A stretch of 64,000 nucleotides of DNA, from positions 768,001-832,000 of the forward strand of contig CAVSBQ010000002.1 of the NCBI GenBank assembly GCA_963726265.1, written 5' to 3'. Both the position numbers and the translations under genes were made by a program. The notes beneath the pieces were generated by a model, which was not told the DNA's origin, did no database searches, and saw only the letters and a list, made by a program, of their open reading frames with translations. The stretch comes from Candidatus Aenigmatarchaeota archaeon (GTDB lineage Archaea > Aenigmatarchaeota > Aenigmatarchaeia > QMZP01 > QMZT01). Below are positions 1 to 44,473 of this stretch, piece by piece (the first letter of the stretch is position 1; each line of letters begins with the position of its first letter).

Positions 1-3000
1 GGCAAAACCATAAACGCAAGCACCAACAGGACATCCTACGACGGCAAGAGCAACGCCACGACAATTTACATATATGGCTGGGCGGAGCCCGACGCGATGA
101 GCCCTGCAGAAGCGACCGTGTACATCGCAGGAGGCAGCAAGACGATAAAATGCCACGTGAGGGACACGAACACGCACGAGAACCTCGTCGGCTATAACGT
201 AAGCTTATACGTCAACGGCGCCTATCAGGGGTCGGAGCTGACGGTCGGCGATTCCGGCAATGAAGGCAACGCCTCCTTCATGTTCAGCACCAACAGGCCT
301 GCCGGCTATTACAACATCACGTGCTCGATAGGCAGCGATAACGTCATGTATTACAACGTCTCGACTGCCAACATAACCCACGAAATCCGCGTGTCCAGGC
401 CGCTCATAATAGACCAGATAGTCAGGGTTCCATCCAACGGCATCATATACAGGAACGATTCCTTCTCTCCTTACCACGTCAACGTCACCGTGCACATCAA
501 GGACGCCGAGCTAAGCGGGGAGGGAGCAGACAACGCTACGGTGCTCTTCTATAACCACTCGCAGGAATACATCGGCAACTGCACGACGAACGTATCAGGC
601 TGGTGCAACGAGAGCGTGGCATGGAATCCCGAAGACACCATAGCGCCTAACTATTACAACATCTACATGAATGCCACGAAGCCGTACACCAACGAGAATT
701 CGACGACCAATTCAACAAGCATAGACGTGTGGGGCAGATACCTGGCCAACATAAGCAAGCCAGATGAGGGCTCGCTTTACGGCAAGGGCGCGCTCATACC
801 ATTCAACGCCAGCATAAGGGACGAAGACTGGAACTGGTTCATGGGGACGATGAACGTTTACTGGTACAACGATACGAACGATTACATCTACATGACCGTT
901 TCAGGCGAGCTTAGCACCTTTGATTCCAGTTCGCAGGACCCCGGCTTCAGGAATTTCACCGCCAGGACCCAGCTGGGCCTTGCCCACTATTACTCCGAGA
1001 ATGACAGTGTCACGGTGCAGATGACCGGCTGGTCGATCGCTTCATGGGAATACCCCCCGCACCTCTCTGCTGTAAGGTATCCCTATGAGTTCCAGAGGGT
1101 CTGCAGGGTCATCGATTACATTTCGATGACGGGCGTGCCCAACTATCCCGTCAACATGTCTTACTGGAACGCGACGTCAGGCCAGTGGGTTTACAACGGC
1201 ACATACGTCACGAACGCCAGCGGCCACGTAAACGCAAGCTGGACGCCGTGGGACAAGGGCAACGTGACCTTCAACTGCACGATAGGCAACAACGCCACGC
1301 TGCAATACACGGCAAAGGAAGGCAACGAGAGCGCGGCCGCAATAATCTGGGTCAGGGACGAGGTCCCGCCAAACATAACAGGCGTCACCATCCTCCCGAA
1401 CGCCAGCATAGAGGCCTATCTCAACACGACGAACATCTCGGCAAACGTGACGGATGACTATATGGTATGGGACGTATGGGCGCGCCTTGGCCTGCCCAAC
1501 GGCAGCTATGAAAACAAGAGCATGAGCAACATAACGCTTACGACCTACAGGGTGGTTTACCCGCCCAAACTGAACGGCACATACAACGTGACGATATATG
1601 CAAAAGACAAGGGACCCGAATACAACATAAACAGTTCCGGCCCGTATTATTTCACGGTCTGGGGCAAGGCGAATGGAAGGGTAGGCCAGAACGCGACCGT
1701 TTACGCCGGCGGCATAACCCAGATTAATCCGTTCGTCTTCAACCTCACAATCAACTTCACCAACAACGGGCCGCCGCATGCATACGAGGCGAACGTCAGC
1801 ATATATGATCGTTCATCGCCGACGTCGAATGTTTCAACAGGCTACGTGACATACAACGAAACCTCGCATTACTGCGGCAACATGACCAACGGCTCGCTGT
1901 GCCAGTGGACCGTGCTCATCACGGTGCTTGCCGCTACTCCGCCGACTGGCATATACGTCTATGGCAACGCGACCTGGATGGAGCCCGACAGGACGAACGC
2001 TTCATACGCCAATTACACCTACGTCATAGTCGCTTCCAACCCGGTCATAGAAATCCTCGAGAGCGGCATCAACAGGACGACCCCGCACGACAAGGTCACA
2101 TACGTCGACAACCTGACCGTGTATTCAGGCGGCAACGACAGGATAACCAACATACAGCTCGGCAATCTCGGAGGCAACTTCGACCTTAACTGCTACGACT
2201 GCGGCCTGACCATCGTTCCGAACTCCCAGGGAGACCTTGCAGCGGGCTATAATTTCACTTCGGACATCTGGGTCACCATTCCCAAGGGCAAGCCGCCCGG
2301 CAACTACTGGACCTACATAACGGTCAACTCCACGAACGCCGGCTCGGACATATACCTCATGAACCTCACCGTCCCGCTGAATTCTTCATGGCTGAGAACG
2401 CCGTCGTCCTTCCCGGTCATAATCGCGCAGCCCAACGCCAACGGCCTGGTGGGCAGGTTCAACGTCACGAACGACGGCAACGTCAAGATAGATTTCATGA
2501 GCGTTAAAAGGGAAGCCGCAGGTCCTCTCGTGGCGGTCAACCCGGAAGGCTTCTCCGTCGACACGATGTCGACCAGGGAAATAAATATCACGTACACGAT
2601 ACCCATAGGCTATCCGAACGGCCTGTATTACGGCGTGATTGCGATAAGGAACGACACGCTGCCAGCGGACCCGGTCGAGCAGACGATTTCATTCTGGCTT
2701 AACGTCACAGACCTCGCCCCGAACATAAGCAGCTACAGCGTGGAACCAAGGAATTTCGAGGCGGGCTTCGAAACCGTCATCATAAACGCCACAATCACCG
2801 ATAACATCGCGGTCGACAAGGGATGGACTGAAATAGAGAGGCCCGGGGAATACGTGAGCTATTCCAGCAGCCAGACGATGATGCACAACGCGACCGCGCC
2901 CGATGACGGTTTCAATTACACCGAAGGCATAAACTCGACCGGCACCATGCAGCAGTTCAACGTGACCGTTTACAACTGGAATGCTGACACCTTCATCTAC

Positions 3001-4119
3001 GTCAACATAACTGTCAACGGCCTGCTGATAACGGGCAATCATTCCATCGAGAACGGCACGAACTTCACCATCGACGCAGTCGCCGCCGGCGCGAACCTTT
3101 CGCTTCCGGCCAACCACGACATAAACATAACCATCTATAATTCCGCAGGCGACCAGCTGGAAGCCAGTTACACGTCATGGCTTTCCTACAGGATATTGCA
3201 CGGCCAGCTGATAAAAACCATGATGGACAGGAACGTTTCGTTCTTCAACACGACATACTGGACCAACGTGACTGGCTACCACAAGCTGAGAATATGCGCG
3301 AATGACACGTCGGCCAGGACAGCGTGCACCGCTGACATAAGCCTGCTGGCCGCGGGCAACACCAGCATCATAGTAACACCGAATGCCACCGTGATAAACG
3401 TCACCAACATAACCACCATCGCGGGCCAGAGTTTCGGAGTGGCTTTCAACGTCTCCAACGCCGGTTATGCCAGGGCATACAATGTGATCGCCAACGTGTC
3501 TTACCTGGCGGGCTGGTCTGCCGTACCGGAGGGCTTCTACTTCGGCACGCTTTACAGGACTAACGTCTCGTCCAACCTTACTGTCATAACCGTGCCGCCG
3601 TCCACGGTCCCGGGAGAATACAATGCATACATAACCGCCAACTGGACTAATCTCAACGCATCCAATCTTGGTACGAATTTGACGGCCATAATATTCAACG
3701 TGAGCGCCAACCCGATGATAGACCTCCAGGACAGGATACCGCCTTCAGGCGAAGAGGTGATAAGCGCCGGCAGCGAAAGGAATATCACCTTCAACATCAC
3801 GTCGATAGGCAACGTCAACGCGACCAACATCACGTTCAGCTGCAGTTCCGGAATCGTTTGTATGAACTTCTCCCCCGTGTTCAGCACAGCTCTAATTCCG
3901 GTTATGGAAAGCAACGCGACGCAGCTCGTTAACGTGAGCGTCTCCATCGCCTGGAACTTCCCCGCAGGCCCATACAACGGCACCATAACCGCAACGGGCG
4001 ACGGGACCTCGGATTCCTCGCCCATTTACGTAACCATCCCCGCGAACGTTTCATGGAGCATGGAGCCGAACAACATAACCAGGGAAGTGTTACAGGGAAC
4101 GAGCGGATTTTCGGCTTAA
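1..4119 (+). CDS. Giant surface glycoprotein, N-terminal part (5'-truncated by window edge); tandem Ig-like/CARDB-type beta-sandwich domains; continues through frameshifts into 4337-7600
   Basis: Frame 1 is open from base 1 (GKTINASTNRTS...). Very dense N-x-S/T sequons and repeated 'TPPGxY-G-I-V' / 'V-N-GN' modules. No TM or plausible C-terminus before the stop, and the same type of sequence continues in other frames. Confidence 0.85.
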   Translation, partial: GKTINASTNRTSYDGKSNATTIYIYGWAEPDAMSPAEATVYIAGGSKTIKCHVRDTNTHENLVGYNVSLYVNGAYQGSELTVGDSGNEGNASFMFSTNRPAGYYNITCSIGSDNVMYYNVSTANITHEIRVSRPLIIDQIVRVPSNGIIYRNDSFSPYHVNVTVHIKDAELSGEGADNATVLFYNHSQEYIGNCTTNVSGWCNESVAWNPEDTIAPNYYNIYMNATKPYTNENSTTNSTSIDVWGRYLANISKPDEGSLYGKGALIPFNASIRDEDWNWFMGTMNVYWYNDTNDYIYMTVSGELSTFDSSSQDPGFRNFTARTQLGLAHYYSENDSVTVQMTGWSIASWEYPPHLSAVRYPYEFQRVCRVIDYISMTGVPNYPVNMSYWNATSGQWVYNGTYVTNASGHVNASWTPWDKGNVTFNCTIGNNATLQYTAKEGNESAAAIIWVRDEVPPNITGVTILPNASIEAYLNTTNISANVTDDYMVWDVWARLGLPNGSYENKSMSNITLTTYRVVYPPKLNGTYNVTIYAKDKGPEYNINSSGPYYFTVWGKANGRVGQNATVYAGGITQINPFVFNLTINFTNNGPPHAYEANVSIYDRSSPTSNVSTGYVTYNETSHYCGNMTNGSLCQWTVLITVLAATPPTGIYVYGNATWMEPDRTNASYANYTYVIVASNPVIEILESGINRTTPHDKVTYVDNLTVYSGGNDRITNIQLGNLGGNFDLNCYDCGLTIVPNSQGDLAAGYNFTSDIWVTIPKGKPPGNYWTYITVNSTNAGSDIYLMNLTVPLNSSWLRTPSSFPVIIAQPNANGLVGRFNVTNDGNVKIDFMSVKREAAGPLVAVNPEGFSVDTMSTREINITYTIPIGYPNGLYYGVIAIRNDTLPADPVEQTISFWLNVTDLAPNISSYSVEPRNFEAGFETVIINATITDNIAVDKGWTEIERPGEYVSYSSSQTMMHNATAPDDGFNYTEGINSTGTMQQFNVTVYNWNADTFIYVNITVNGLLITGNHSIENGTNFTIDAVAAGANLSLPANHDINITIYNSAGDQLEASYTSWLSYRILHGQLIKTMMDRNVSFFNTTYWTNVTGYHKLRICANDTSARTACTADISLLAAGNTSIIVTPNATVINVTNITTIAGQSFGVAFNVSNAGYARAYNVIANVSYLAGWSAVPEGFYFGTLYRTNVSSNLTVITVPPSTVPGEYNAYITANWTNLNASNLGTNLTAIIFNVSANPMIDLQDRIPPSGEEVISAGSERNITFNITSIGNVNATNITFSCSSGIVCMNFSPVFSTALIPVMESNATQLVNVSVSIAWNFPAGPYNGTITATGDGTSDSSPIYVTIPANVSWSMEPNNITREVLQGTSGFSA

Positions 4120-4336
4120 TAGCAGTCAGGAACATGGGCAACGTCTACGCAGGCCTTACCGTCGATCCAGATAGGACTGGAACGTACCGCCCGGCTACAT
4201 CATCCTACACGCCTGCAGCATTTCACCTGGACATAGGGGAAATAGAATATATTGTATGTCAATTACAGCGCTGCCCGTGACTTACATCACATCCACATAC
4301 ACGGGCAAAATATGGACCTCAACGTAACATCCTACG

Positions 4337-7300
4337 ATGAAGAGAATTCCAGAAAATATCCTCATAAACATAACCATACATCCCTACTCCGTCAACATCA
4401 TCTCGCCGACAGAGGCGAGCCCGAAGCTCAACGTCTCTCCCGGCGACATCGGTGCAGGCCAGGATAAACATCACCTACGGCACGTCGCCCGTCACGCAGA
4501 ACATGACCTTCAACCTTTCGCTTTACAACAGCACCATGCGCTCGTACGTCACGCTCACGTCGCAGAGCTACAACTCGACCAACGGGCTGTGGTACGTGAA
4601 CTTCACCGCGCCGAACGCTCGCGCTGCAGAAGGGCTACGACCTCAACGTCACCGCGACCTACAACAGGTATGGCAATGCAGAACGTCACTTATTATGACA
4701 CCGAGGCCAAGGCCGTCGTATACAAGGACGAGGTGCCGCCAGAGATTGTGATATCCGTGCCAGCGAGGGTGCCGGCCAACAACACCGCGACAGTTTATGC
4801 GAACATAACCGACCAGGGCGGCGTGCAGAACGCGAGCATAATCGTCTATAACCCGAACGGCACCGCGCAATACGGCAACATGACCTTCATTTCGAAGAGC
4901 ATCGACACGTATGTCTACAGATATGATTACATCAACACGACCTCGACCGGAATCTACACGATCAACGTGACCAGCTGCGACATGTCAGGCAACTGCAACT
5001 CGACCAACAAGACCTTCGAAATATTCCTGGGCATCTGGTTCTCAGGTTACGCCATAGACATCTTCAACTCCAGCCACCCGGTCATACGCCAGGAATTCAG
5101 GTTCTACGACGACTACGGCCAGCTGCTCATGAACTTCACCGGCAACTCCCTGACCGGCTTGTATAACGAGAGCATAGACTCGAGGATATATGACATCGCG
5201 GTCAGGTTCTGGAACGACAGCATCTCGCTCCTGACCGTGCCGATGTTCGTGAACATACACAACCCCATACAGTTCGGCAGCGTCCCGAACACCAGGGTGT
5301 CCCTGCTGGGCGCCGGGGTCTACAGGAGCGTGTGGGTCAACAACTCGATGAACTATTCGATGGGGAACATCTCGCTCAATTACTCCAGGTATGAAGAGCA
5401 GATCAACCCCGTCAACATCAGCCTTTACCATTGCAGTTCATTCAATTCCATTTCGTTCTGCCAGTCCGGATGGAGCAGGATGACCGTGGCGGTCAACACC
5501 ACGACCACCACCATAACCGCCAACTCGACCGACCTTAACGGCGTTTTTGTGATAGCCGACTTCATCTGCGGCGACGGCAGCTGCTCGTCAGCTTCCGGAG
5601 AATCGATGGCCAACTGCCCGCTCGACTGCGTCATAATAACCCCGCCTGTTACTCCTCCGGGGGGCGGAGGCGCGGCTGGCGGAGCGGGAGCCGGGGCCGC
5701 GGCAGGCGCCGGAGCCGCCGCAGGCGCAGCGGGAGCGGCGCAGGTCCCGGTCGAGATAAAGTCGACGCTGATATTCGTCACGCTAAGACCCGGCGAGCAC
5801 GAAATACACTCGATAGACATAACCAACAACCTTGGCAATGCCGTCGAGGTCGAGAATAGCGTGATCGGCAACGCCTGGGAGCTTGTCCAGATTGAAAAGC
5901 CGACGATGACGGTTCCCGGGAAGTCGACGGGCGTGATGAAGGTCAAGCTTTACGCGCTGCCGACCACGCAGGCCGGCATATACACGGGCGACATCATATC
6001 CAAGGTGAGGGGCACCAACATCTCCCACGTAACGCCGGTGACGATAAAGGTCGAGCTGCCGCCCGAGCCGCTGCTTGACGTCACGGTCAAGGCGCTCACC
6101 AAGACGGTCGAGCCCGGCGGGAACCTGAAATTCGAAATCACGCTGCTCAACATGGGCCAGACCGCCAAGATAGAGGACATAGTCGTTAGTTATGTTGTGA
6201 AGGGGTTGGACACGGAGAGGGTGATAACGAAGAACAGCGAGACGCTCGCAGTCGAGAACGTCAAGAGCTTCACCAAGACCATCGCCATCCCCGATGACAC
6301 GCCGCAGGACAGGTACGTCGTGGAAGTCAACGTGACCTACTGGTACGGCAAGAAGTCAGCGTATGCGGTAGACTCGTTCGACGTGTTCGTGCTTCCAGCT
6401 CCGTTAGCGCTGCTGCGCGCGGTGTTCATGCACTGGATAACCTATGCTATCGCTTTCGCCGCGATACCTGGCATATACTTCGGCAGGCGCCTGTTCGCGA
6501 CATGGCGCGGCAAGAAGAAAAAAGGCAAGAGATACATCTTCCCGCTCGACTTCAACAAGCTGCCGAAGCCGGGGCCTGACACCATCCCGGTCGGCAAGAT
6601 CGCGGAGACGGACGTGAAAGCGTACATAGACACGAAAGCGCTGATGATGCACTCGCTGGCCGCAGGAGCGACGGGCTCGGGCAAGTCCGTATCCGCGATG
6701 ATATGCGCGGAGGAGCTGCTGAAACGCGGCATGCCGATAATAGTGTTCGACCCGACTGCGCAGTGGACCGGCTTCATGAAGGCCTGCAAGGACAAGAGGA
6801 TGTTCGACCTTTACCCGCAGTTCGGCATGAAGCCTGACGAGGCGATGGCGTTCAAGGTGAACATCATCCTGGTCACTGACCCGAACATGGAAGTCGACAT
6901 ACAGAAATACAGGAGGCCGGGCGAGATGACGGTCTTCGTGATGAACAAGCTGGAGCCAGAGCACCTGGACAACTTCGTGAGGAAAACGGTGACGTCGGTA
7001 TTCAAGGCCGCGCTCGGGGAAGAGAAGGAGCTGAGGCTGCTGCTCATATACGACGAGGTCCATCGCCTCCTGCCGAAATACGGCGGCAAGGGCGGTTACA
7101 TAGCGATCGAGAGGGCATGCAGAGAATTCCGTAAGTGGGGCATCGGCGTGTTCATGATATCTCAGGTGCTTATGGACTTCAGGGGCGCGATTCGCGCCAA
7201 CATAGCCACAGAGCTCCAGCTCAGGACTAAATACGAGGGCGACATCGGCAGGGTGAAGACCAAGTACGGCATGGACTTCGCGTCGAGGGTCGTGAAGCTG

Positions 7301-7600
7301 ACGACAGGCACGGCGCTGGTCCAGAACCCGGCCTACAACGACGGCAAGCCGTATTTCATCGCCTTCCGCCCGCTGCTGCACGACACGGGAAGGCTCACTG
7401 ACGAGGAGATAGAGAAATACGTGAAGGTCCAGCAGGAGATAGAGAAGATAGAGAAGCAGATTGAAGCGATGAAGGCTAGGAAGGTCGACACGACCGACAT
7501 AGAAATCGAGCTGAACCTCGCGAAGGACAAGATGAAGGCCGGCCAGTTCTCGATGGCCGAGAGCTACATAGAGTCGCTCAAGGCCAGGCTGAAGGCGTGA
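4337..7600 (+). CDS. C-terminal part of giant surface protein: Ig-like domains, Cys motif (CGDGSC...CPLDC), Gly/Ala linker, TM helix, cytoplasmic HerA/DUF87-like (FtsK-HerA superfamily) ATPase, C-terminal helical bundle
   Basis: TM ~6400-6490 followed by RGKKKKGKR. Walker A GATGSGKS (6665-6688), hhhhDP motif (IIVFDPT), Walker B LLLIYDE (~7037-7057), Arg-finger-like REFRKWG and sensor ISQ. Part of the first ~110 codons of the called ORF is out of frame. Confidence 0.85.
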   Translation: MKRIPENILINITIHPYSVNIISPTEASPKLNVSPGDIGAGQDKHHLRHVARHAEHDLQPFALQQHHALVRHAHVAELQLDQRAVVRELHRAERSRCRRATTSTSPRPTTGMAMQNVTYYDTEAKAVVYKDEVPPEIVISVPARVPANNTATVYANITDQGGVQNASIIVYNPNGTAQYGNMTFISKSIDTYVYRYDYINTTSTGIYTINVTSCDMSGNCNSTNKTFEIFLGIWFSGYAIDIFNSSHPVIRQEFRFYDDYGQLLMNFTGNSLTGLYNESIDSRIYDIAVRFWNDSISLLTVPMFVNIHNPIQFGSVPNTRVSLLGAGVYRSVWVNNSMNYSMGNISLNYSRYEEQINPVNISLYHCSSFNSISFCQSGWSRMTVAVNTTTTTITANSTDLNGVFVIADFICGDGSCSSASGESMANCPLDCVIITPPVTPPGGGGAAGGAGAGAAAGAGAAAGAAGAAQVPVEIKSTLIFVTLRPGEHEIHSIDITNNLGNAVEVENSVIGNAWELVQIEKPTMTVPGKSTGVMKVKLYALPTTQAGIYTGDIISKVRGTNISHVTPVTIKVELPPEPLLDVTVKALTKTVEPGGNLKFEITLLNMGQTAKIEDIVVSYVVKGLDTERVITKNSETLAVENVKSFTKTIAIPDDTPQDRYVVEVNVTYWYGKKSAYAVDSFDVFVLPAPLALLRAVFMHWITYAIAFAAIPGIYFGRRLFATWRGKKKKGKRYIFPLDFNKLPKPGPDTIPVGKIAETDVKAYIDTKALMMHSLAAGATGSGKSVSAMICAEELLKRGMPIIVFDPTAQWTGFMKACKDKRMFDLYPQFGMKPDEAMAFKVNIILVTDPNMEVDIQKYRRPGEMTVFVMNKLEPEHLDNFVRKTVTSVFKAALGEEKELRLLLIYDEVHRLLPKYGGKGGYIAIERACREFRKWGIGVFMISQVLMDFRGAIRANIATELQLRTKYEGDIGRVKTKYGMDFASRVVKLTTGTALVQNPAYNDGKPYFIAFRPLLHDTGRLTDEEIEKYVKVQQEIEKIEKQIEAMKARKVDTTDIEIELNLAKDKMKAGQFSMAESYIESLKARLKA

Positions 7601-7689: not shown

Positions 7690-9309
7690 ATGGCGGGGAA
7701 AAGGGTGAAAACCACTAGTGTAAAGAAGGCCGCGCCAAAGATCGCGGCAAAAGCGAAGGACAAGGCTTCTTCTAAAGCTTCCAAGATCGTAACAAAAACC
7801 CAGGCAAAAAGCGCGCTTCCTTCTGAGAGCCTTGAGCAGCTGATGCACGAGAAAGAGGAGATACAGGCTCTGCTGTCGTCGCTTGAGGATGCTTACACTG
7901 AGGCGGCGATACTCGAGGACGACTACAACGACATAAAGGCCAAGAACGAGAAGAAGCTCGAGGACATAAGCAGGAAGATAGACATCCTCGCGAAAAGCCA
8001 GCCTGCCGCTGAAATGCCTGCAGTTGATCTGGCGGAGATGGCGAAACCCGCCGCAGCTTTCAGGATGCCGAAGATTCCGGTTTACGAGGAAGCCCCTCCT
8101 GAAGAGGAAGAACCAAAAGTCAAGGAAAAGTCTAAAAAAGAAAAGGCCGCAACCGAGGCGTTAGGCGCAGAGGACCTGAAGAAGCTCGAGGTCGACCTGG
8201 CGGAGAAGATAAGGCAGATGGTCGAGGACATAGGCGCGAAGGTTAGCGAGAAGGACCTGCTGGAGATGAAGAACAGCTTCGCCAAATTCGAGGCCGAGAT
8301 AGACAAGATGAAGGCGCAGGTCGAGGCGGTCAAAGAAGGCAGGAAGGTCGACGACGACAAAATACAGCGGGTCATTGAAGGCCTGGCCGAGGTAAGGACG
8401 ATGGTCTACGGCAGGGAGGCGTCGACCAAGGAGCAGGAGATAAAGTTCGAGAAGGCGATGGACATCATGGGCAGGATAGAGCCGGAGAAGATAATAATGG
8501 AAATCGGCAGGAGGGACAAGGAGATAAGCAATACCGGCCTCCGCATGAGCAAGCTCGAGGAAACGTCAAAGGAGTTCGGCGAGATGCTGAAGAGGATCGA
8601 GACGCTGCTGCGCAACGTCGGAAGCCTCGAGCACGTCATCACCATAAGCAATGAGGCATCCGAGAAGCTCATGATCATGGAAAACATCCAGAGGAGCAAC
8701 CAGAAGATGATGGACAAGATACAGGGCATCTACGCCGAGCTTAGCAAGAGGATGGAGGAATTCATGCTTTACCGCGCGAAACAGGACAGGATAGACGACC
8801 TGATGAACGACGTCATGAAGAACATGGACGACCTGACGACGAGGTCCGCGTATTTCGTGACCAAGGACGATCTCGAGTCGCTCAAGGCGAGCATACAGAC
8901 CACAATCGCCTCAGCGCCGGCTGCGCCGTCGGAGGCTTCGGGCCTGCAGGCGCAGAAGGAAGAGATAGAGATGCTGATGAAGTCCATGGAAGACGAATTC
9001 AAGAGCAGGACCATATCCAAGGAAGAATACGAGAAGATGAAGAAGGCGAACACGGCAAAGCTCATGGAGCTTGAAAGCAAGATAAGGAGCGGAACGGCGG
9101 CTCCGCTGCAGCCTCGCGTCTTCGAGAAACCGAAGCCCGCGAAGTCCGCTCCGAACAAGCCGAAGGAAACCCGGGAGGCAAAGCCGTCGAAAGAGATGAA
9201 AAGCAAGAATGACATGATGCTCAGGGACCTGGAGGACACTTACAGGAAGGGCTTCATCAGCAAGGAAGCTTACGATAAGACGAAGAAGATGATTTTGGGA
9301 AAAAGGTGA
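7690..9309 (+). CDS. Cytoplasmic coiled-coil protein with Lys-rich N-terminus and three SHOCT-like motifs
   Basis: E/K-rich heptad pattern with no TM. Motifs LEDAYTEAAILEDDY, MEDEFKSRTISKEEY and LEDTYRKGFISKEAY. Confidence 0.75.
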   Translation: MAGKRVKTTSVKKAAPKIAAKAKDKASSKASKIVTKTQAKSALPSESLEQLMHEKEEIQALLSSLEDAYTEAAILEDDYNDIKAKNEKKLEDISRKIDILAKSQPAAEMPAVDLAEMAKPAAAFRMPKIPVYEEAPPEEEEPKVKEKSKKEKAATEALGAEDLKKLEVDLAEKIRQMVEDIGAKVSEKDLLEMKNSFAKFEAEIDKMKAQVEAVKEGRKVDDDKIQRVIEGLAEVRTMVYGREASTKEQEIKFEKAMDIMGRIEPEKIIMEIGRRDKEISNTGLRMSKLEETSKEFGEMLKRIETLLRNVGSLEHVITISNEASEKLMIMENIQRSNQKMMDKIQGIYAELSKRMEEFMLYRAKQDRIDDLMNDVMKNMDDLTTRSAYFVTKDDLESLKASIQTTIASAPAAPSEASGLQAQKEEIEMLMKSMEDEFKSRTISKEEYEKMKKANTAKLMELESKIRSGTAAPLQPRVFEKPKPAKSAPNKPKETREAKPSKEMKSKNDMMLRDLEDTYRKGFISKEAYDKTKKMILGKR

Positions 9310-9329: not shown

Positions 9330-12300
9330 TTGTTTTTGGCGTTTGCAATATTGTCCGTCATGGTGCTGGCGAGCATGTCCGGCATCTTTTCTCAGCAATA
9401 CGAGGACAAGTGGTGGGACGCCAACTGGCATTTCAGGGTCGGCATAGAGATAAACAACACGGGCTACAACAGGACTAACTGGACCGTCGAATACGCCATC
9501 AATTTCACCCAGGTCCTCCACAACATGAGCCTCTACGAAACGTTCGACGAGAACTCGACGCGCGTGGTGGAGTATAATTCCAGCGGCTCCATACTGCATG
9601 AAATCCCGTCGCAGTTCGACAAAGGCGACGGTTACGCTGCGGGTACGAACGCGGCCGGAACCGTCGTATTCACCATGAACGGCACCACCGTCGCGAACCA
9701 GAAGCGCTACTTTTACGTCTACTTCGACACGCTTGAGCACGGCAGCAAGGCCGTGGCAAATTACGCCACCGACCTTGTCTACAACTATACCGGCGGCATG
9801 GGGGAATTCAACATAAACAACTCGCTCTTCCGCTGGTGGATGGACACGGAGCGTGGAGAGAACACCTCGGGCATTTACTACGTGAGGAATGTCCGCGAGA
9901 ATACGGATGACGAAAACGAGATACTGAGGGTCAACGATTCCAACAACATGACGGTCGAGTATTCGCAGCTTTCGAACGCGACGGACAGGTTCGGCTTCGA
10001 CTTCAGGAACAACGCGACCTTCAAATACGCGGGCCCGGTCAGGATAGTGGTGGAGCAGCGCGGGGACGAGGTATACTGGAACCAGCCCGACAACAAGACC
10101 AACGAAGGCTACATGATAAAACGCTATACCTTTTACCGCTACAGCGACTGGATTAAAATAGAGCAAATTTACGTCAACAACGCGAGCTACAACATCACGA
10201 GGAACTCGACGGTCGCCGGCGCGCTCGCGCTTGACATTTATTATTCCTTCATGACCTCCGGCTACAGCACCTATTCCAACATGTCGAACACCATCGACCC
10301 AGGCTCCTACGGCTGGGCTTCGGAGGCCACCGGAACATGGTGGATAGGCATACTGAACCTTTACGAGAACGGCACCAGCAACTTCTTCGGCCTCGAGGAC
10401 AGCACGGCAGGAAGGCTGGGCATACAGCTCAACCTGACCAACATAAGCGCCGGCAGCTCAATAAGGCATGTCGCCGCCATCCAGTTCAACGGAAGCGGCC
10501 AGGCAGGCCAGGAAGAATATTTCAGGAACTTCGTTAACCAGAGCATCACTTCGCTTGATATAACAACCCTTGGCGGCGAGGCATGGACGGTCGTTACCGG
10601 CAAAAAATTCTACATGAACGCCACAAACGAGGCAAGCATATTCAACAGGAACGAGAGCATCAGGATATGGGCGAACATCACCGATCACTACAACCTGTCG
10701 AAGTTCGTCAATGCCAGCCTAAACCTCGGAGGCGCGGGCGAACTCAACCTGACGCTTTACGACGACGGCGCGCATGGCGACGGCGGGGCGAACGACAGCA
10801 TATATGCATACACCTACAACCTGTCCGATGCCGCCGCAGTGGGCGTGTGGAACGCGACGTTCAGGGTTTACAACGTGAGCGGCTACCTGCTCAACACGAG
10901 CTCATTAACGTTCAACGTCACCAACGTCTACAACGTCACGGTCAACATCTCGAACCCGACCGGCTTCACAGAAAGGCTCATAAACACGACGGTTTACGTG
11001 AAAAACTTCAGGGGCGACTCGTGGATTACGGGCGCAAGCCTGAACTGCGCTTTCGATTCCACCCCGGTGCCGTCACAGAACATAACTGACAAGGGGAACG
11101 GCACGTACAACGTCCTGTTCACCGCACCGTCTTACGCAGGGCTGTTCACGCTCGCGTGCAACGCGACGAGGAACAACAACACCGGCTACGCCACGGAAGA
11201 GTTCACGTGCGAGACCTACACCACCAACATAACCATAATGCCCACGCCCCAGAATTTCACGGCGGCGAATGTCACGTCCTATTCGAACCAGACCTTCAAC
11301 CTGAGCGTCTTCGCCTTGAACACCGCGAACGGAACGGCGTATGACATGAACCTATCGCTGGTCTTCTCCACACCGAACATAACCGCCAATGTGACGCAGC
11401 AGGGATGCGGCAACGTGTTCATCTCCAAGAACTGCACCAAAACCTTCCAGGTCATAATCACGAGCCTGACGCCCCAAGGCAACTACACGGCAAACATAAG
11501 CGCCTCCTGGAGGAACTCCAACGCGTCTGTCGCAGGCCATAACAGCACCATCATGAACATCACAGTCATGCCGAATCCCATCCTCAACGTTTCAGACACT
11601 TACATGATCGCCCTGATAGCGGCAGGCAAGGTACTCAGGAACATAAAGAACGTCACCGTTTATTCCCTGGGCAACGAGCCCCTCTCCAACGTCAGTTTCA
11701 ATGTTTTCAATTTCGGCAACAACTTCACCTTCGGTTTCGTCCCCGCGAATCTCACCTTGCTCGGAGCCGGGACGTCGCAAAGCGTGGAGATATGGCTCAA
11801 CGCCACCGCGGACACGCCGCCCGGCGAATACAACGGCACCATAAACGTGACGACTTCGAACGACGGCTCAAAGGCCATGAACCTCACCATCGCCGTCTCC
11901 GGAACCAACATGTCGCTGGTGCTTGACAAATACAATTTCACCGCAGAGAACGTGACATGGTACCAGAACCAGAGCTTCCCGCTTTACATCAACACCAGCA
12001 ACATGGGCAACTCGACAGCATACAACGTCAGCATGATGCTCAATTTCTCCGACACCAACATAACTTCCAGCGCAAATACTTATGCCTGCGGCAACGTCCC
12101 CAAAGGCGCGCTTTGCAACGCGTCCTTCGCCATAAACATCCTCAACCGCACCCATTCGGGCAACTACACCATCAACGTCAGCATCCAGTGGGAAGACCCT
12201 GACCAGGGGACTAGCTCCAACACGACTCTCTTCAACATAACAGTCACGTCGCACATAAACCTTTCCATACCGCAGAATTCCATCTCGAACAACGTCACCC

Positions 12301-15248
12301 ACGGGACCGAGAAGGAGATAGGCATCCTCATACTGAACTCGACGGGCAACGACCCCGTGGAGAACATAAACTTTACCGTCTACAACTTCAGCTCTGATTT
12401 CACCTTCGAGTTCATCCCCTCCAGCATCTCCTGGCTCGGAGGCGAATACCCCCAGGGCCTCAAGATAAATGCGACCGTGAGGTATGGCCAGCCGCCCGGG
12501 ACATACGCAGGGATACTCAACGTCACCAGCTCCAACAGCGGCAACAAGGCAATAAACCTCACGCTGGAGGTGCCGACTTCGATGACTTGGAACATGAGCG
12601 CTACCTACTGCGAGAAGGTCGAGTCGCCCGAAGAGGGGACGGCCTGCGAAATCGTGGTCAACAACACGGGCAACGTCATCGTAAACTACAGCATAACGCC
12701 CGTCGCCAATGCGACGAACATGTTCAACTACACGTGGACGAACAAGACCAGCTTCGTCGTCCCCAACGGGACTTTCGTGACCTTCGCCGTCCTTTACAAC
12801 ATAACCAACCAGACCATAAAATTCTACTATGCCAATTACACTGTCGACGCCCTGCAGGGCGGCTCAAGCCCGGACAGCCTGCTGCTGCAGATAATCCTCA
12901 ACCCCTTCATAAAGCCGAACGTCGAGGTTTTCGTCTACCCCAACATGACCGAGCAGACTGATGGGGTGTGGATATACGCCAACGTCACCGACCAGTCGGG
13001 CGCTGGCATAGCCGACGGCAACGTGACCGCGACGGTAAGAAAACCGGACGGCACGAATTCGACGGTGGCCATGCTTTTCTACAGCGGCGTGCACACGGGC
13101 GGCGTTTCAAGATGGAAAATACAATACCCGAGCAACTTCAGCGGCGGCGCGAACACGACGCTCAAGGGCTACTATAACATAAGCATTTTCGCAATCGATG
13201 GCCAGGGCAAGAACACCACACACAATACGACTGCCTTTTTAATATACTATAAGCTCTTTGTCGAACTCAACGCCAGCCAGCACGCATACAGGGGCGATTC
13301 GCTGGAGATAAGGCTCAGGTCTCATGACGCTCTGGGAGCGCCGCTGCCGGGAGCCAGCGTGAATCTCACGCTCACGGACCCCAACGGCGGCAACAAGGAC
13401 TACTACATGTGGGGCGGCAAGTATTTCGTAACGGATTCAAACGGAGACGCGGGAGGCTTTTATCTCATACCGTCGAATGCGATACTCGGCAACTACACCT
13501 TCGCTTCCAATGCCTCATACAACGAGACCACTGTCAGCAGGACGATACAAAACACATCTTCGCTGCAGTTTGACGTGAGGGACGTGAGCGAAGTGTCGGC
13601 GATGGCTGACATTCCCGACCCCGTTTACAGGGACAAGGTGATGCCGATCAGCATCTTCATCCTCGACCACGGCGAATGCGTCCAGACAGAGCCCGACACC
13701 ATAGAGCTCACGATATATTATACCGAGGGCTATTCGCTCCAGCAGTGGAGGAGGCTTACGAAGCTGAACCTTACCCAGAACTCGACATGCTTCTACACGT
13801 ACGGTGAACTCATCGGCAGCAACGTCCTGACAGGCAGTTATCTGGCCGTCCTGAGGGTCGGCTATGGCGACAAGGAGGCATGGGACCTGAAGGCTTTCAG
13901 GATAACTACCGGCGGCCCATACGACGTCGCTGTGAACATGCTGGAGACGTCCGTCCCGAAGGCCGACTACGTCGACTTCGAGCTGCTGCTCACGAACATG
14001 GGCGGCACGACGCCGGACGTCCTTGTCGAATACTGGGTCTCGGGGGCGAATCAGACATGGGATTACAGGTCCGAATCCATCATGGTCAACGCCTATGCGA
14101 ACAGAACGCTGTTGAGGAGCCTCTACATCCGGTCTGACCAGTCGGTCGGCCAGTATTACGTGAACGCGAAGGTCACGTACGACCCGATAAACAACCTTTA
14201 CGCGATTGCAAACTCAAGTTTCACCGTCACTGAGGCCGCTGCAGAACAGCCTCCAGGCGGGGCGCCGGGAGGCGGCGCAGAAGAGGGCGGAGGAGCTGCG
14301 ATTTCTTCCGCGCCGCCCAAGATAGAAATCATACGATACCCGCAGGAGCTCGGCATGGAGCTGGATACGGTAAAATATCCCGTCGTCGAGGTGAAGAACT
14401 CAGGCGGCTCCAAGCTGTATAACGTGACGCTCAGGCTGAGCGGGATTCCCTCGCCGTGGGTACAGGAAATAACGCCGAAGGTCATACCGGAAATCCCGGT
14501 GGGCAACATCTCCATCTTCACCATAACGCTAAAGATTCCGCCAACCGCGGAAGCGAAGGAATACGCGGGCCAGATAATCGCCGACGCGAACATCACGAAA
14601 GACGAGAAGACGTTCTCGCTCACGCTTTTCACGACCCGCGCGCAGCTCATCAGCTGGGAGATAGACAGGCTGAAGAAGGCGCTGCAGCAATTCGAGGTCG
14701 ACGTCGAAAGCGCGAAGAAGGCCGGCAAGAACGTTAAGGACGTCACCCCATACATCGACCAGATAAAGGAGCAGATAAGGCTCGCCGAGGACTACCTGGG
14801 AAAGAAGATGTATGACGAGTCGCTCAGCGCGGTCCAGAGCGGCTGGAGCATGCTCGAAAAGGCGAGATACCTTCTGGCTCAGGCGCCGTTCACCGAGATA
14901 CTTATAGAGACGATATTCCCGCCGTGGCTCATCGCCCTGCTGGTCGTGCTCGTGGTCGCGATAGCCATACTGCTGTTCTTCGTGAGGAGGATGAAGGGCG
15001 TTTTCGACAGGATATTCAGGATGCAGGCGCCCGGAGGCGGCGGGGCGGCGAAGCCTTCGGTCATGGTCGAGAAGATGAAGGAGCGGGAGAACCTGGGAAA
15101 GGAAGAGATGAACATCAGAAAGGTCATGGGCCTGCTGGAGAGGCAGTACAAGGAAGGCCTCATAACCGAAAACGCCTACATGAGCCTCAAGGCAAGGAAC
15201 GAGGAGAAGCTTGCGAAAATCGAGCAGATGAAAGCGGCGATGAAGTGA
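9330..15248 (+). CDS. Giant single-pass surface glycoprotein (DUF2341-like N-terminal domain, Ig-like repeats, TM helix, cytoplasmic SHOCT-like tail)
   Basis: N-terminal hydrophobic signal, WWDANWHFRVGIEI motif, LYDDGAHGD Ca-loop-like motif and many sequons. TM WLIALLVVLVVAIAILLFFVRR followed by tail LERQYKEGLITENAY. The true start may be ATG at 9322 (after GGTGAG) with a 1-nt indel. Confidence 0.85.
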   Translation: MFLAFAILSVMVLASMSGIFSQQYEDKWWDANWHFRVGIEINNTGYNRTNWTVEYAINFTQVLHNMSLYETFDENSTRVVEYNSSGSILHEIPSQFDKGDGYAAGTNAAGTVVFTMNGTTVANQKRYFYVYFDTLEHGSKAVANYATDLVYNYTGGMGEFNINNSLFRWWMDTERGENTSGIYYVRNVRENTDDENEILRVNDSNNMTVEYSQLSNATDRFGFDFRNNATFKYAGPVRIVVEQRGDEVYWNQPDNKTNEGYMIKRYTFYRYSDWIKIEQIYVNNASYNITRNSTVAGALALDIYYSFMTSGYSTYSNMSNTIDPGSYGWASEATGTWWIGILNLYENGTSNFFGLEDSTAGRLGIQLNLTNISAGSSIRHVAAIQFNGSGQAGQEEYFRNFVNQSITSLDITTLGGEAWTVVTGKKFYMNATNEASIFNRNESIRIWANITDHYNLSKFVNASLNLGGAGELNLTLYDDGAHGDGGANDSIYAYTYNLSDAAAVGVWNATFRVYNVSGYLLNTSSLTFNVTNVYNVTVNISNPTGFTERLINTTVYVKNFRGDSWITGASLNCAFDSTPVPSQNITDKGNGTYNVLFTAPSYAGLFTLACNATRNNNTGYATEEFTCETYTTNITIMPTPQNFTAANVTSYSNQTFNLSVFALNTANGTAYDMNLSLVFSTPNITANVTQQGCGNVFISKNCTKTFQVIITSLTPQGNYTANISASWRNSNASVAGHNSTIMNITVMPNPILNVSDTYMIALIAAGKVLRNIKNVTVYSLGNEPLSNVSFNVFNFGNNFTFGFVPANLTLLGAGTSQSVEIWLNATADTPPGEYNGTINVTTSNDGSKAMNLTIAVSGTNMSLVLDKYNFTAENVTWYQNQSFPLYINTSNMGNSTAYNVSMMLNFSDTNITSSANTYACGNVPKGALCNASFAINILNRTHSGNYTINVSIQWEDPDQGTSSNTTLFNITVTSHINLSIPQNSISNNVTHGTEKEIGILILNSTGNDPVENINFTVYNFSSDFTFEFIPSSISWLGGEYPQGLKINATVRYGQPPGTYAGILNVTSSNSGNKAINLTLEVPTSMTWNMSATYCEKVESPEEGTACEIVVNNTGNVIVNYSITPVANATNMFNYTWTNKTSFVVPNGTFVTFAVLYNITNQTIKFYYANYTVDALQGGSSPDSLLLQIILNPFIKPNVEVFVYPNMTEQTDGVWIYANVTDQSGAGIADGNVTATVRKPDGTNSTVAMLFYSGVHTGGVSRWKIQYPSNFSGGANTTLKGYYNISIFAIDGQGKNTTHNTTAFLIYYKLFVELNASQHAYRGDSLEIRLRSHDALGAPLPGASVNLTLTDPNGGNKDYYMWGGKYFVTDSNGDAGGFYLIPSNAILGNYTFASNASYNETTVSRTIQNTSSLQFDVRDVSEVSAMADIPDPVYRDKVMPISIFILDHGECVQTEPDTIELTIYYTEGYSLQQWRRLTKLNLTQNSTCFYTYGELIGSNVLTGSYLAVLRVGYGDKEAWDLKAFRITTGGPYDVAVNMLETSVPKADYVDFELLLTNMGGTTPDVLVEYWVSGANQTWDYRSESIMVNAYANRTLLRSLYIRSDQSVGQYYVNAKVTYDPINNLYAIANSSFTVTEAAAEQPPGGAPGGGAEEGGGAAISSAPPKIEIIRYPQELGMELDTVKYPVVEVKNSGGSKLYNVTLRLSGIPSPWVQEITPKVIPEIPVGNISIFTITLKIPPTAEAKEYAGQIIADANITKDEKTFSLTLFTTRAQLISWEIDRLKKALQQFEVDVESAKKAGKNVKDVTPYIDQIKEQIRLAEDYLGKKMYDESLSAVQSGWSMLEKARYLLAQAPFTEILIETIFPPWLIALLVVLVVAIAILLFFVRRMKGVFDRIFRMQAPGGGGAAKPSVMVEKMKERENLGKEEMNIRKVMGLLERQYKEGLITENAYMSLKARNEEKLAKIEQMKAAMK

Positions 15249-16153: not shown

Positions 16154-16924
16154 ATGAGCAGGGTAATAGGCATAATTTCCGGCAAGGGTGGGGTTGGCAA
16201 GACGACCGTAGTGGCGAATCTCGGCTCCATCCTCGCGCAGAAGTTCAAGAAAGACGTCATCGTCATCGACTGCAACGTCTCGACGTCGCATCTCGGGCTC
16301 TACCTGGGCATGTATTACACGCCCGTCACTTTGAACCAGGCCCTTACAGGCGAGGCGAAAATAGAGGATGCCATTTACAATTATCACATAAGCGGCTTGC
16401 GCGTCATACCAGCGTCGCTTTCGTTCAGCGACCTGAAGGGCGTGGACATCGCGCGCCTGAGGAACACGATAAAGAAACTCTTTGGCAAGGCGGACATCAT
16501 ACTACTCGACGCCGCTCCCGGCCTCGGCAGGGAGGCGATGGCGACGGTCCGCGCGTCGGACGAGGTCATATTCGTGAACACGCCGTTCGTGCCGTCGACG
16601 ATGGACATCATAAAATGCCATCAGGTGGCGAATGAGATGGGCGTCAAGCCGCTGGGAGTGATACTCAACATGGTGGGCAGGGAGAAATACGAGCTCACGC
16701 CCAAGGAGGTCGAGGAGCTCATAGAGCTGCCCGTCATATCCAGCATACCCGTGGACAAGAACGTGTTGCGCAGCCTCGCGCTCAAGATGCCAGTCGTCCT
16801 TTTCTCGCCGGGTTCGCCTTCGAGCAAGGAATTCGTCCGCCTGGCCGCGCACCTGCTCGGCGAGAAGTACGAGCCCGAGGGGCTTTTCACAAACTTCTTC
16901 AGGATGTTCTCCAGAAAGAAGTAA
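16154..16924 (+). CDS. minD: MinD/ParA-family ATPase (archaeal MinD type)
   Basis: Deviant Walker A SGKGGVGKTT, IDCN, LLDAAPG and GVILN motifs. C-terminal amphipathic membrane-targeting helix GLFTNFFRMF. Confidence 0.9.
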   Translation: MSRVIGIISGKGGVGKTTVVANLGSILAQKFKKDVIVIDCNVSTSHLGLYLGMYYTPVTLNQALTGEAKIEDAIYNYHISGLRVIPASLSFSDLKGVDIARLRNTIKKLFGKADIILLDAAPGLGREAMATVRASDEVIFVNTPFVPSTMDIIKCHQVANEMGVKPLGVILNMVGREKYELTPKEVEELIELPVISSIPVDKNVLRSLALKMPVVLFSPGSPSSKEFVRLAAHLLGEKYEPEGLFTNFFRMFSRKK

Positions 16925-16952
16925 TTTATAGAAACCTCGCGAAATTATCTAT

Positions 16953-17219
16953 ATGATGTATGAGATTGCTGTCATAGCTCTGCTCGCGGTAATCTGCTTT
17001 TTATTATACAAGTTATATAGAATAAAATATACGGTTGGGGCAGGCAGAACGGGGTTTATACCCGAGAATCTGAAGAAGGACCTCGATGACATCGTTCCGG
17101 AGAGAAAAAGGGAAACGGAGATGAGGTTCAGCGACATTAATGCTAGAATTTCCGGGCTCGAACGAAGGCTCGAAAAGAGTGAAAGGTTTGTCGAAAAGCT
17201 TATCGAAGAGCTTGGTTAA
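16953..17219 (+). CDS. Small membrane-anchored protein with C-terminal coiled coil
   Basis: N-terminal TM (IAVIALLAVICFLLY) and heptad ISGLERRLEKSERFVEKL. Confidence 0.7.
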   Translation: MMYEIAVIALLAVICFLLYKLYRIKYTVGAGRTGFIPENLKKDLDDIVPERKRETEMRFSDINARISGLERRLEKSERFVEKLIEELG

Positions 17220-17233
17220 TCGGGGTGTCTTGC

Positions 17234-22100: not shown

Positions 22101-22503
22101 CGAGGCCAAGAGGAGCGACAAGGTCGAGAAAACGAAAGCCGCCGCTGACAGGGAGGTAAAGGTCAGGCTCGACGAATTCTCTGCCAGAACCGAGGCCAGG
22201 ATAAGGGCCTCCGAAGCCGAGCTCAAAGCCCTCAGGGCAGAGCTGGCCGGCGTTGTGGAAAAGCTGAGGGACAGGTTCGATGAAATAATAGAGGAGAAGT
22301 CAGAGACGTTCGAGACGACCATGGATGGCGTGGTCCAGAAATCCGAGAAGGCGAAAAAGGACGCGGAAGCGCTGGTGGAAAACCTGAAGGCGAAATTCCA
22401 GGTCAGGAGAGAAGGAAAGATGGAGGGAGATAGACAAGTCACTCAAAGAGCTCATGTTTGCCAAGGGAGAGATGGAGAGAAGGCTCAAGGAAATCGACGC
22501 TGA
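19168..22503 (+). CDS. Very long coiled-coil/amphipathic repeat protein, main part; continues after a frameshift into 22454-22993
   Basis: 142-aa and 222-aa internal repeats with no Walker motifs. The sequence turns non-helical after ~22410 while another frame continues the repeat. Confidence 0.8.
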   Translation: MSELTELEEAMRSLKKDNLEKKRLVAELEDEKKYIEERNRYLIEKLKQAGVLYEESGKRLMDFVNENVKPLKAKLSEFEAMAQKTKEYEKSIAVALKRITEFEAIIGDFKNEVIKGDEKEAGLSGELGEMKKALAEMAKRIARVQTFGSEELGEKVEEIKAKFGEDTRKIEDEFSVLKLGVGSAIDNFKKEFERQANALRNEMEKVDIKKAKELGDALAQVAEELNKTKTDFSKSMVMLEKSVEKLDMKKTKEMDTTLTTLSSSLDERFGNLAADVEKRVEQAESELKGFRVDLEKTLGKTKLEARDFMDVKAKEFDSLLQELKAKMNEQLKVSSEQWSKNLGTLRTDLIVTKKEVEKLIATINRKVELGEERREKKLEAGFAHMNASVAKRLDDETEQIYGQLGDITGSIEDLKANLDKKVMDTEKEMARFKVELEKTLGKAKVDTRDFVASKAKEFDAVLAGMKAKVDDQVAASASVWDKNLGALRSDLVSTQEEVEKLIGSINRKVELGEERREKKLDAATLAIQTSLSKKIDAAADEIYAKVDDIDGNVDAFKEGTTKTIDSLRKAIDLGEVKRKEDIDKIIKNFMVVKGEVDEKIREVSAGLDKFSKTSEVLRRQITKESLAGVQERVKAIIAELEKKFEVVEDGIIDKIATLESDVDELNAGFQGIANSVKTETERKLDFLRKEFEKRDIARDKGVDSFAKTLQKTVDAKFDSLITKMDARLKETEDETNSVRKDVDSFTVDLSEKFDSIISSKSKNFEKMMEALVTQTKAIQKDVNLTINDFKKEVERSDIHKKAEIERFLKEFVVERGRIEEKIKQVDAKLSEFSAMRKELKKEIYNESLAGVNQRVKDIIEGIEERFGNSRNEMENRVSELMKSVDMRVRETEASLNGIKAEMGRTTGKLRDDVDKITGKKAGEVDRVAAKLRTDVDVRVKATTSELYESMDAVKNDIVMLKGGLEKQVASLRKEIELGEAKRSDKVEKTKAAADREVKVRLDEFSARTEARIRASEAELKALRAELAGVVEKLRDRFDEIIEEKSETFETTMDGVVQKSEKAKKDAEALVENLKAKFQVRREGKMEGDRQVTQRAHVCQGRDGEKAQGNRR

Positions 22504-44339: not shown

Positions 44340-44473
44340 CCAGAACTGATTAATAATTGGTCATTTCGCTTAATATCCTACCGCCATTTCCGCAGAAGTT
44401 CCATAGAAGTATCCCGTGCAAGTAAAGACAACGTGTGAGCACAAATTTTAAGGCGGCTTGCCTTATTTTAAAC

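Follow-up and report, generated by a model that had tools for sequence, protein, structure and literature searches.

The closest described systems are the SPEARE proteins of nanohaloarchaea, which reach 8,553 amino acids (aa), are mostly extracytoplasmic and carry a transmembrane (TM) domain toward the C-terminus (Hamm 2019, PMC6642349). In that paper the conserved intracellular portion was originally read as a type III restriction enzyme, and SPEARE-like sequences were recognised in Woesearchaeota, Aenigmarchaeota, Micrarchaeota and Altiarchaeales. A later study (La Cono 2023, PMC10266531) describes proteins of 9,409 and 8,880 aa in which a signal peptide and ~75 immunoglobulin (Ig)-like domains are followed by a TM domain, and whose cytosolic part is a VirB4/TraG-like ATPase with a coiled coil at its very end. 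The same study re-reads the SPEARE domain as a VirB4/TraG-like ATPase with no endonuclease domain, proposes a secretion 'straw', and reports a VirB4/TraG-family ATPase gene downstream in two nanohaloarchaeal loci (SVXNc_0299, BNXNv_0297). Here we describe a stretch of 64,000 nucleotides (hereafter the window, C2:768001-832000) from an archaeal genome (G000; 1.13 Mb in 4 contigs, 88% complete), and in particular the open reading frame (ORF) at 4337-7600 on the plus strand, whose 1087 aa form the C-terminal part of a giant gene. Judging by sequence, the host is a DPANN archaeon, and its nearest relatives are labelled Aenigmatarchaeota. We read the ORF as encoding the C-terminal portion of a giant, membrane-anchored surface glycoprotein of the SPEARE type, and put the probability of this identity and architecture at about 0.8.

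The likeness to SPEARE proteins extends over the whole layout. The host is a DPANN archaeon in both cases, and the present protein is very long, mostly extracytoplasmic and built from beta-sandwich, adhesion-type domains (NEW3, Filamin, Nis1, Ig-like); a single TM helix lies near the C-terminus, and the cytoplasmic end holds a conserved P-loop ATPase followed by a coiled coil. Membership of the family was assigned on this shared architecture, on an identity of 51-60% between the ATPase and proteins of metagenome-assembled genomes (MAGs) labelled Nanohaloarchaeota (51% to Ca. Nanohaloarchaeota QJJ-7, 59% to a MAG titled Nanohalarchaeota), and on the mention of Aenigmarchaeota relatives in the two papers. 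There are also differences. Unlike the published proteins, the present one is neither halophilic nor acidic, and its density of N-glycosylation sequons (N-x-S/T) is extreme. Intact relatives, at 13,314-14,526 codons, are longer than the largest published proteins (8,553 and 9,409 aa), and the gene that follows the ATPase encodes a coiled-coil protein, after which comes a 1,972-aa glycoprotein. A further difference is a helix-turn-helix (HTH)-like segment (Pfam HTH_11 6e-4, under cut-off), found in frame before the signal/anchor both here and in G014 (G014:C3:21546-65123), a genome of a different genus; in G030 and G035 the giant protein begins with an ordinary signal peptide. If the HTH-like segment is translated, both ends of an extracellular chain of 13,000-14,500 residues would be cytoplasmic.

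The giant gene spans ~38.8 kb in total (3.4% of the assembly), corresponding to ~12,900 codons in pieces, and is the sole giant ATPase-tailed gene in this genome. Its start, at contig position 736,750, lies ~31 kb ahead of the window. The upstream pieces of 4,033, 489, 286, 3,543, 523, 671 and 2,111 codons lie on the same strand in alternating, overlapping frames, and are colinear with the giant homologue of the congener G002. The piece that reaches into the window opens 2,216 nucleotides 5′ of it and follows the G002 homologue colinearly over residues 1254-3309 of the latter (65% identity); its Pfam matches are NPCBM_assoc/NEW3 (1e-6) and Filamin (1.2e-4). Within ORF 4337-7600 the first ~110 codons are partly out-of-frame read-through. 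Colinearity with homologues begins at about residue 112, with genuine colinear coding from near 4670-4680.

An original prediction, made from the DNA letters, had described this ORF as a HerA/VirB4-like ATPase joined through one TM helix to a glycoprotein ectodomain of >2,000 aa, with one uninterrupted frame across the junction (4680-7600). Every element that it listed is present in the ORF, and colinear coding from about 4680 is borne out by three-frame reading and by alignment to homologues. The ectodomain is indeed giant, although its size was understated for a gene of ~12,900 codons. The accompanying premise that no such ATPase with a giant ectodomain was known is out of date, as the layout is published in PMC6642349 and PMC10266531; beyond these two papers, we found in the literature no further description of giant ATPase-tailed DPANN surface proteins.

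The fusion of ectodomain, TM helix and ATPase is genuine, far beyond chance. It is not an artefact: relatives carry this ATPase at the end of uninterrupted frames as long as 14,526 codons (G014), followed by 13,519 (G035), 13,314 (G030), 8,399, 6,351 and 5,373 codons. A match to the 399-residue ATPase query at E ≤ 1e-100 is present in 23/41 genomes of the same order, this one included, and all 32 matching places at E ≤ 1e-80 in the 41 genomes are free of internal stops; a second paralogue among these genomes has ~2,950 codons. We also assembled a set of relatives comprising the best 80 of 556 related loci, with one genome per species. The frame is open for at least 300 aa upstream of the ATPase at 67/68 loci with that much DNA, and across the whole 3-kb flank at 56/60; one locus, L031, has only 41 open codons upstream of the ATPase. 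The frame is thus uninterrupted here and in relatives, which agrees with the earlier view that the fusion runs through one TM helix and is unrelated to the frameshifts: homologous ATPases are not always separate ORFs, and no stop falls near 6400-6530.

The predicted topology places the ectodomain outside and the ATPase inside, because the 1087 aa hold 25 sequons before the helix and 0 after it, and because the 80 relatives have 4.72 outer-side sequons per 100 aa vs 0.12 for the inner side. In the present protein sequons occur solely before the helix, and the two domains do not share one side of the membrane. The 14,526-aa homologue of G014 alone contains 923. By Kyte-Doolittle analysis the only strongly hydrophobic stretch within the 1087 aa is that at 6392-6481. 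A TM-like window lies upstream of the ATPase in 69/75 relatives, the remaining 6 scoring 1.45-1.59, just below the threshold, and at least 4 Lys/Arg residues occur within the 20 aa following the helix in 64 relatives. As predicted from sequence, the product is one polypeptide in which beta-sandwich repeats rich in N-glycosylation sites, a single helix, an ATPase of the HerA/VirB4 class without N-terminal accessory domains and a helical tail follow one another.

Profile matches and the modelled structure assign the ATPase to the HerA/VirB4 branch of the FtsK-HerA superfamily; the HerA score exceeds that of VirB4 by about two Z units. Pfam matches the DUF87/HerA central domain (2.7e-10, 41.1 bits, cut-off 23.2) and HerA_C (3.3e-7, 29.8 bits, cut-off 22); T4SS-DNA_transf is exactly at cut-off (3.2e-4), and FtsK_SpoIIIE (PF01580) is below cut-off in the giant protein (18.6 bits, cut-off 24). 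A profile of 12 family members against the PDB retrieved HerA of S. solfataricus (4d2i, 1.9e-11) plus several anti-phage HerA proteins, and aligned Walker A, Walker B, the RxxRK box and the SQ motif with their counterparts in 4d2i. An AlphaFold2 (AF2) model of the 399-aa ATPase piece (predicted local distance difference test [pLDDT] 88.3, predicted template modelling score [pTM] 0.83) has tail helices at 334-359, 365-379 and 383-398. HerA ranked top in Foldseek (7.7e-12), and VIA-align gave Z scores of 25.4, 24.9 and 24.8 for HerA, 23.7 for DndH-C, 23.3 and 23.2 for VirB4 (4AG5/4AG6), 19.7 for TrwB, 17.8 for FtsK, 17.3 for TcpA and 17.2 for EssC. The best VIA superposition on HerA has a root mean square deviation of 3.4 over 255 residues. 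The ATPase call of the original prediction is therefore upheld by Pfam (DUF87), Foldseek (HerA) and VIA (Z 25.4 for HerA, 23.3 for VirB4).

The ATPase is not a HerA orthologue, because the distance from helix to Walker A is only ~60 residues, which leaves no room for the HerA N-terminal barrel, and because the scores against NCBIfam HerA equivalog models are low (19-31 bits vs cut-offs 800-970). Likewise it is not VirB4, because the CagE/TrbE/VirB domain is absent from both protein and genome (PF03135, 0 matches in the giant protein or in the 88%-complete genome). The NCBIfam model for CedD, a DNA-translocating ATPase, matches at 5e-10 over 66 residues only (38.7 bits vs cut-off 600). HerA (4D2I; Pfam DUF87, PF01935) is the best sequence-profile and structural match and shares the core with Walker A/B and the arginine/sensor residues; unlike HerA (PF01935 + PF05872), the present protein lacks an N-terminal HAS barrel, is tethered to the membrane and is joined to an ectodomain, and no NurA accompanies it among the scanned neighbours. 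The C-terminal domain of VirB4 is a near-equal structural match, and gives the name used for the domain in PMC10266531, whereas neither the CagE/TrbE/VirB domain nor, among the scanned neighbours, other parts of a type IV secretion system (T4SS) accompany the present ATPase. TrwB/TcpA, FtsK and EssC/EccC have the same superfamily fold, a membrane tether of N-terminal helices and a cytoplasmic ATPase, but VIA Z is lower for TrwB/TcpA, FtsK and EssC than for HerA and VirB4, and in place of the multi-pass N-terminal membrane domain of FtsK/SpoIIIE there is one helix here. Proteins of the TrwB/TcpA, FtsK and EssC/EccC groups have small or no ectodomains, and either at least two helices per chain or channel partners.

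By sequence comparison no other part of the giant protein is nearly as well conserved as the ATPase. All 81 aligned ATPase sequences are stop-free, and invariant in 81/81 are Walker A residues G89, G92, G94 and K95, Walker B residues D218 and E219, and R241, R244, K245, S254 and Q255. R265, R275, R323, N309 and N313, which lie beyond the ATP site, are likewise invariant. Identity within the genus is 94% for the ATPase and at most 65% for the ectodomain; therefore, selection is strongest on the motor.

The family is large. Among 1.84 billion representatives, 1,110 clusters matched at E ≤ 0.001, of which 359 reached E ≤ 1e-30. In the 150 best clusters, with lengths of 356-7,665 aa and many of them fragments, the ATPase lies at the C-terminus or close to it. 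In addition, 287 proteins of 1,904-5,000 aa match; they carry Aenigm-, Micr-, Woese-, Nano- and Nanohaloarchaeota labels, and are named 'DUF87 domain-containing' or 'helicase HerA domain-containing' at source. In the phylum of the MAG titled Nanohalarchaeota, 28/42 genomes match at E ≤ 1e-20, with frames of up to 12,145 codons.

The coordinates of the features are collected in Table 1. The gene directly downstream (hereafter the partner) has a homologue on the same strand at 69/75 related loci with at least 1,500 nucleotides of downstream sequence, and the order giant protein, partner, 1972-aa glycoprotein is the same in G002. No Pfam or NCBIfam family matched the 539-aa partner. An AF2 model of its conserved core consists of long helices (pLDDT 80, pTM 0.27), for which Foldseek found no match at E ≤ 0.001; rows at E 0.4-7 were short helical hairpins (the ESCRT-I headpiece and others) and were set aside as generic. 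Over 30 aa, residues 197-226 of the partner are 43% identical to the beginning of the tail of the giant protein (E 4e-4 in a single comparison), a weak likeness between two coiled coils. The first ~45 residues of the partner are very Lys/Arg-rich in close relatives. The 1972-aa glycoprotein contains no ATPase. On inspection by eye, the proteins at 7690-9309 and 9330-15248 show a motif of the type G-x-I/F-S-x-E-x-Y, and the cytoplasmic tails at 7397-7597, 9178-9306 and 15066-15245 gave no Pfam match to SHOCT at E ≤ 10. VirB3/6/8-like proteins, a VirB4 N-domain and other T4SS families were not found among the scanned neighbours. NurA and Mre11 were also not found among them; no genome search for NurA was made.

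Table 1. Features of the giant gene and the two genes that follow it (positions are those of the window).
Feature	Position	Strand	Evidence or remark
Upstream ectodomain piece	1..4119	+	1372 codons, open at window start, very sequon-rich (N-x-S/T)
Zone of repeated frame changes	4105..4680	+	Splits the upstream piece from ORF 4337-7600
Sequon-rich extracellular part with weak Ig-like matches	4681..5659	+	Pfam Big_3_2 0.044, Big_3_3 0.11; both below cut-offs
Gly/Ala-only linker, 27 residues	5660..5740	+	
Two membrane-proximal domains of beta-sandwich type	5744..6391	+	Pfam Nis1 3.6e-6 (28 bits, cut-off 27), RbmA-like FnIII 0.0076; NEW3 (PF10633) a precomputed match in most relatives
Single TM helix	6392..6481	+	Kyte-Doolittle 19-aa windows 1.61-1.76
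Lys/Arg-rich stretch on the cytoplasmic side, GRRLFATWRGKKKKGKR	6482..6532	+	9 Lys/Arg in 17 residues
P-loop ATPase core of the HerA/VirB4 class	6533..7396	+	Pfam DUF87, profile, AF2, Foldseek, VIA
Walker A, GATGSGKS	6665-6688	+	
Walker B, LLLIYDE	7037-7057	+	
REFRKWG motif	7121-7141	+	
ISQ motif	7157-7165	+	
Helical (coiled-coil) cytoplasmic tail, ~65 residues, then stop codon	7397..7600	+	AF2
Partner gene, 539-aa all-helical coiled-coil protein	7690..9309	+	
Second large surface glycoprotein, 1972 aa	9330..15248	+	Signal/anchor, NEW3 domains, Gly/Ala linker, TM helix, short helical cytoplasmic tail

We propose that the ectodomain would bind the host cell, and that the ATPase, as expected of its class, would form a hexameric ring beneath the membrane and so gather six fibres at one site, where it may work with the adjoining coiled-coil partner. 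The cargo of the ring would then be a polymer, either DNA or an unfolded protein, moved at the base of the site where the host is attached and not threaded through the fibre itself. To our knowledge, every studied relative of HerA, VirB4, FtsK or TrwB is a hexameric ring that translocates a polymer. By analogy with these relatives, and only tentatively, we see the motor as a polymer-translocating or coupling ring at that base; this is the function we prefer because the studied relatives all move polymers and because there are invariant residues outside the ATP site.

The copy in this assembly is interrupted. At least nine break zones are spread across the 38.8 kb; within the window they are crowded into 4105-4680, where three-frame reading finds coding-like sequence running through all three frames. 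The gene at 9330-15248 and the ordinary genes of the window are intact. Two congeners are uninterrupted: in G001 (ATPase 93% identical) a frame of 1,179 codons runs to the end of the contig, and in G002 (ATPase 94% identical) the frame has 4,465 codons. Alignment of the DNA to G002 reveals that the window misses one base near 4105. A comparison over 4.3 kb was made with Logan contigs of two sequencing runs from different studies (X1 and X2), of which X1 may be the source sample of the assembly. Contigs of both runs have an extra base after 4106 and lack one base at 4165 and at 4170/4171; those of X1 are additionally one base off at 4271, 4320, 4352, 4613 and 4678. Ten indel differences were found in the 4.3 kb, nine of them within 4106-4678 and the tenth past the stop codon, with none in 4700-7600. 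The breaks thus appear private to this assembly, as they are seen in neither the congeners nor the short-read contigs. Those inspected are frame switches with overlapping open frames, with no in-frame nonsense codon seen. Such switches, together with the long open stretches, fit consensus errors better than neutral decay, and therefore we moderately favour consensus errors in a strain-variable gene.

Several points weigh against the view of an intact SPEARE-type protein with a polymer-moving ring. Among the matches listed (120 of 287, and 35 further rows) there is no named SPEARE member, and so no direct alignment to one. The downstream VirB4-family ATPase of the published loci is absent here, with a coiled-coil gene instead and PF03135 at 0 in the 88%-complete genome, although that ATPase is a feature of two published loci and stands outside the family definition. 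The hexameric ring is drawn by analogy from the ATPase class. The chain has a single TM helix, and six single helices would make a poor pore, which speaks against transmembrane transport; moreover, no multi-pass membrane protein was found among the scanned neighbours. With regard to the breaks, indel sites have no homopolymer runs, and an explanation by homopolymer error was rejected. When the X1 indels were inserted without the 20 substitutions of X1, 5/10 stops persisted, and 4408-4551 is barely covered. An intact form in the source population is thus unproven by reads.

The strongest alternative takes the frame changes as real: the copy would be a genuine pseudogene, or else phase-variable and currently switched off, such that a full-length protein would not be produced and at most a 1087-aa remnant could be translated from the ATG at 4337. 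We regard this as quite possible, if not what we prefer. The number of break zones over 38.8 kb, the single giant ATPase-tailed gene in the genome and indel sites devoid of homopolymers are all consistent with it, as is a second surface-protein gene (44435-52631) that is likewise cut while ordinary genes look intact. A strong match in only 23/41 related genomes also suggests that the gene may be dispensable; those MAGs are incomplete, however. Under neutral decay, stretches of 4,033, 3,543 and 2,111 codons that are open without in-frame nonsense would be unexpected. The additional base near 4106 in the X1 and X2 contigs and in G002, the confinement of nine of the ten indel differences to 4106-4678, and the uninterrupted frames of G001 and G002 across the break region also argue against decay, and for consensus errors.

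As for function, the ATPase may instead serve a force-generating or clustering anchor, in which nucleotide-driven ring assembly, together with the coiled-coil partner, would govern how the fibres are bundled, tensioned or turned over, with no cargo. The conserved partner (69/75 loci), the resemblance of the giant protein's tail to the partner's conserved core, the short linker between membrane and ATPase core, and the lack of a channel partner among the scanned neighbours would all suit such an anchor. We nevertheless consider it doubtful, since we know of no characterised HerA/FtsK-class ring that acts without a threaded polymer, and since the strict invariance of R265, R275, R323, N309 and N313 suggests a substrate surface.

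A T4SS-like conduit, in which effectors, DNA or nutrients would be pumped by the ATPase from one partner of the symbiosis to the other via or along the bundled ectodomains, was raised in the original prediction and is the 'straw' proposed in PMC10266531. Besides that published proposal, it draws on the ATPase class, whose members are polymer translocases (VirB4 Z 23.3, TrwB Z 19.7), and on T4SS-DNA_transf at cut-off (3.2e-4); the CedD match (5e-10) also points this way, but covers 66 residues with 38.7 bits vs 600. We consider the conduit unlikely, as the scanned neighbours include no VirB4 N-domain, VirB3/6/8-like or multi-pass protein, PF03135 is at 0 in the 88%-complete genome, each chain has a single TM helix, beta-sandwich repeats build rods and not tubes, and HerA outscores VirB4 and TrwB.

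Lastly, the original reading in PMC6642349, a restriction endonuclease degrading imported DNA, merits next to no credence and was rejected: precomputed matches to PF04851 (ResIII) in some family members fit that paper's type III restriction reading of the same domain, but no nuclease family of Pfam or NCBIfam matched the giant protein, the HerA/VirB4 ATPase fold extends throughout residues 42-336, and the re-analysis of the type protein in PMC10266531 found no endonuclease domain.

Other genes in and beside the window were noted. A second sequon-rich surface-protein gene at 44435-52631 on the plus strand (Big_13 1.1e-38; 127 sequons in the first 1565 aa) ends in a TM helix and a short tail. 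It is split into overlapping frames (44435-49132, 49041-49754, 49574-50101 and 50631-52631), an indel-type pattern like that of the giant gene. On the minus strand, 24523-25449 encodes a 308-aa protein with an N-terminal HTH_20 (1.2e-5, under cut-off) and an S_layer_C outer domain (2.5e-11), an order of HTH then extracellular part that is like the start of the giant gene. The region 16154-24183 (plus strand) encodes a MinD/ParA-type ATPase (CbiA 4.6e-18, ParA 3.3e-17) followed by coiled-coil proteins of 648, 1111, 179 and 397 aa, the latter four with only sub-threshold matches (Apolipoprotein, Baculo_PEP_C, SMC-like). Conserved DPANN loci with coiled-coil proteins are discussed in the preprint 10.1101/2023.02.24.529834. 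Elsewhere in the genome there is a stand-alone 687-aa DUF87/HerA_C/AAA_10 protein (match at C2:340595-341233), which recurs as a frame of 680-700 aa in most relatives. A further DUF87 match lies just past the window (G000:C2:832162-832647), in a 447-codon frame starting 162 nucleotides after its end.

The locus adds no new principle, as the architecture is already published, and the copy in the present genome looks broken or mis-assembled upstream of the ATPase part. What it does show is a large family (359 clusters at E ≤ 1e-30) whose members reach 13,000-14,500 residues in Aenigmatarchaeota, and a domain that is of the HerA/VirB4 class rather than a nuclease. DPANN archaea live on other archaea and are unable to make most of their own building blocks. 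Giant proteins of this kind occupy 3-4% of a 1-Mb genome and have the ATPase as their most conserved part, which makes them prime candidates for the machinery with which the symbionts grip and exploit their hosts. It is conceivable, though improbable, that giant fibre, HerA-type ring, coiled-coil protein and second fibre protein make up a self-contained machine for intercellular exchange, unrelated to T4SS or Ced. If so, the ring would draw DNA or protein from the host into the symbiont, or else retract the fibre, with the coiled-coil protein as stator or adaptor, and intact versions of >14,000 residues would be among the largest archaeal proteins. The coiled-coil partner, conserved at 69/75 loci, makes with the ATPase a concrete protein pair for in vitro study.

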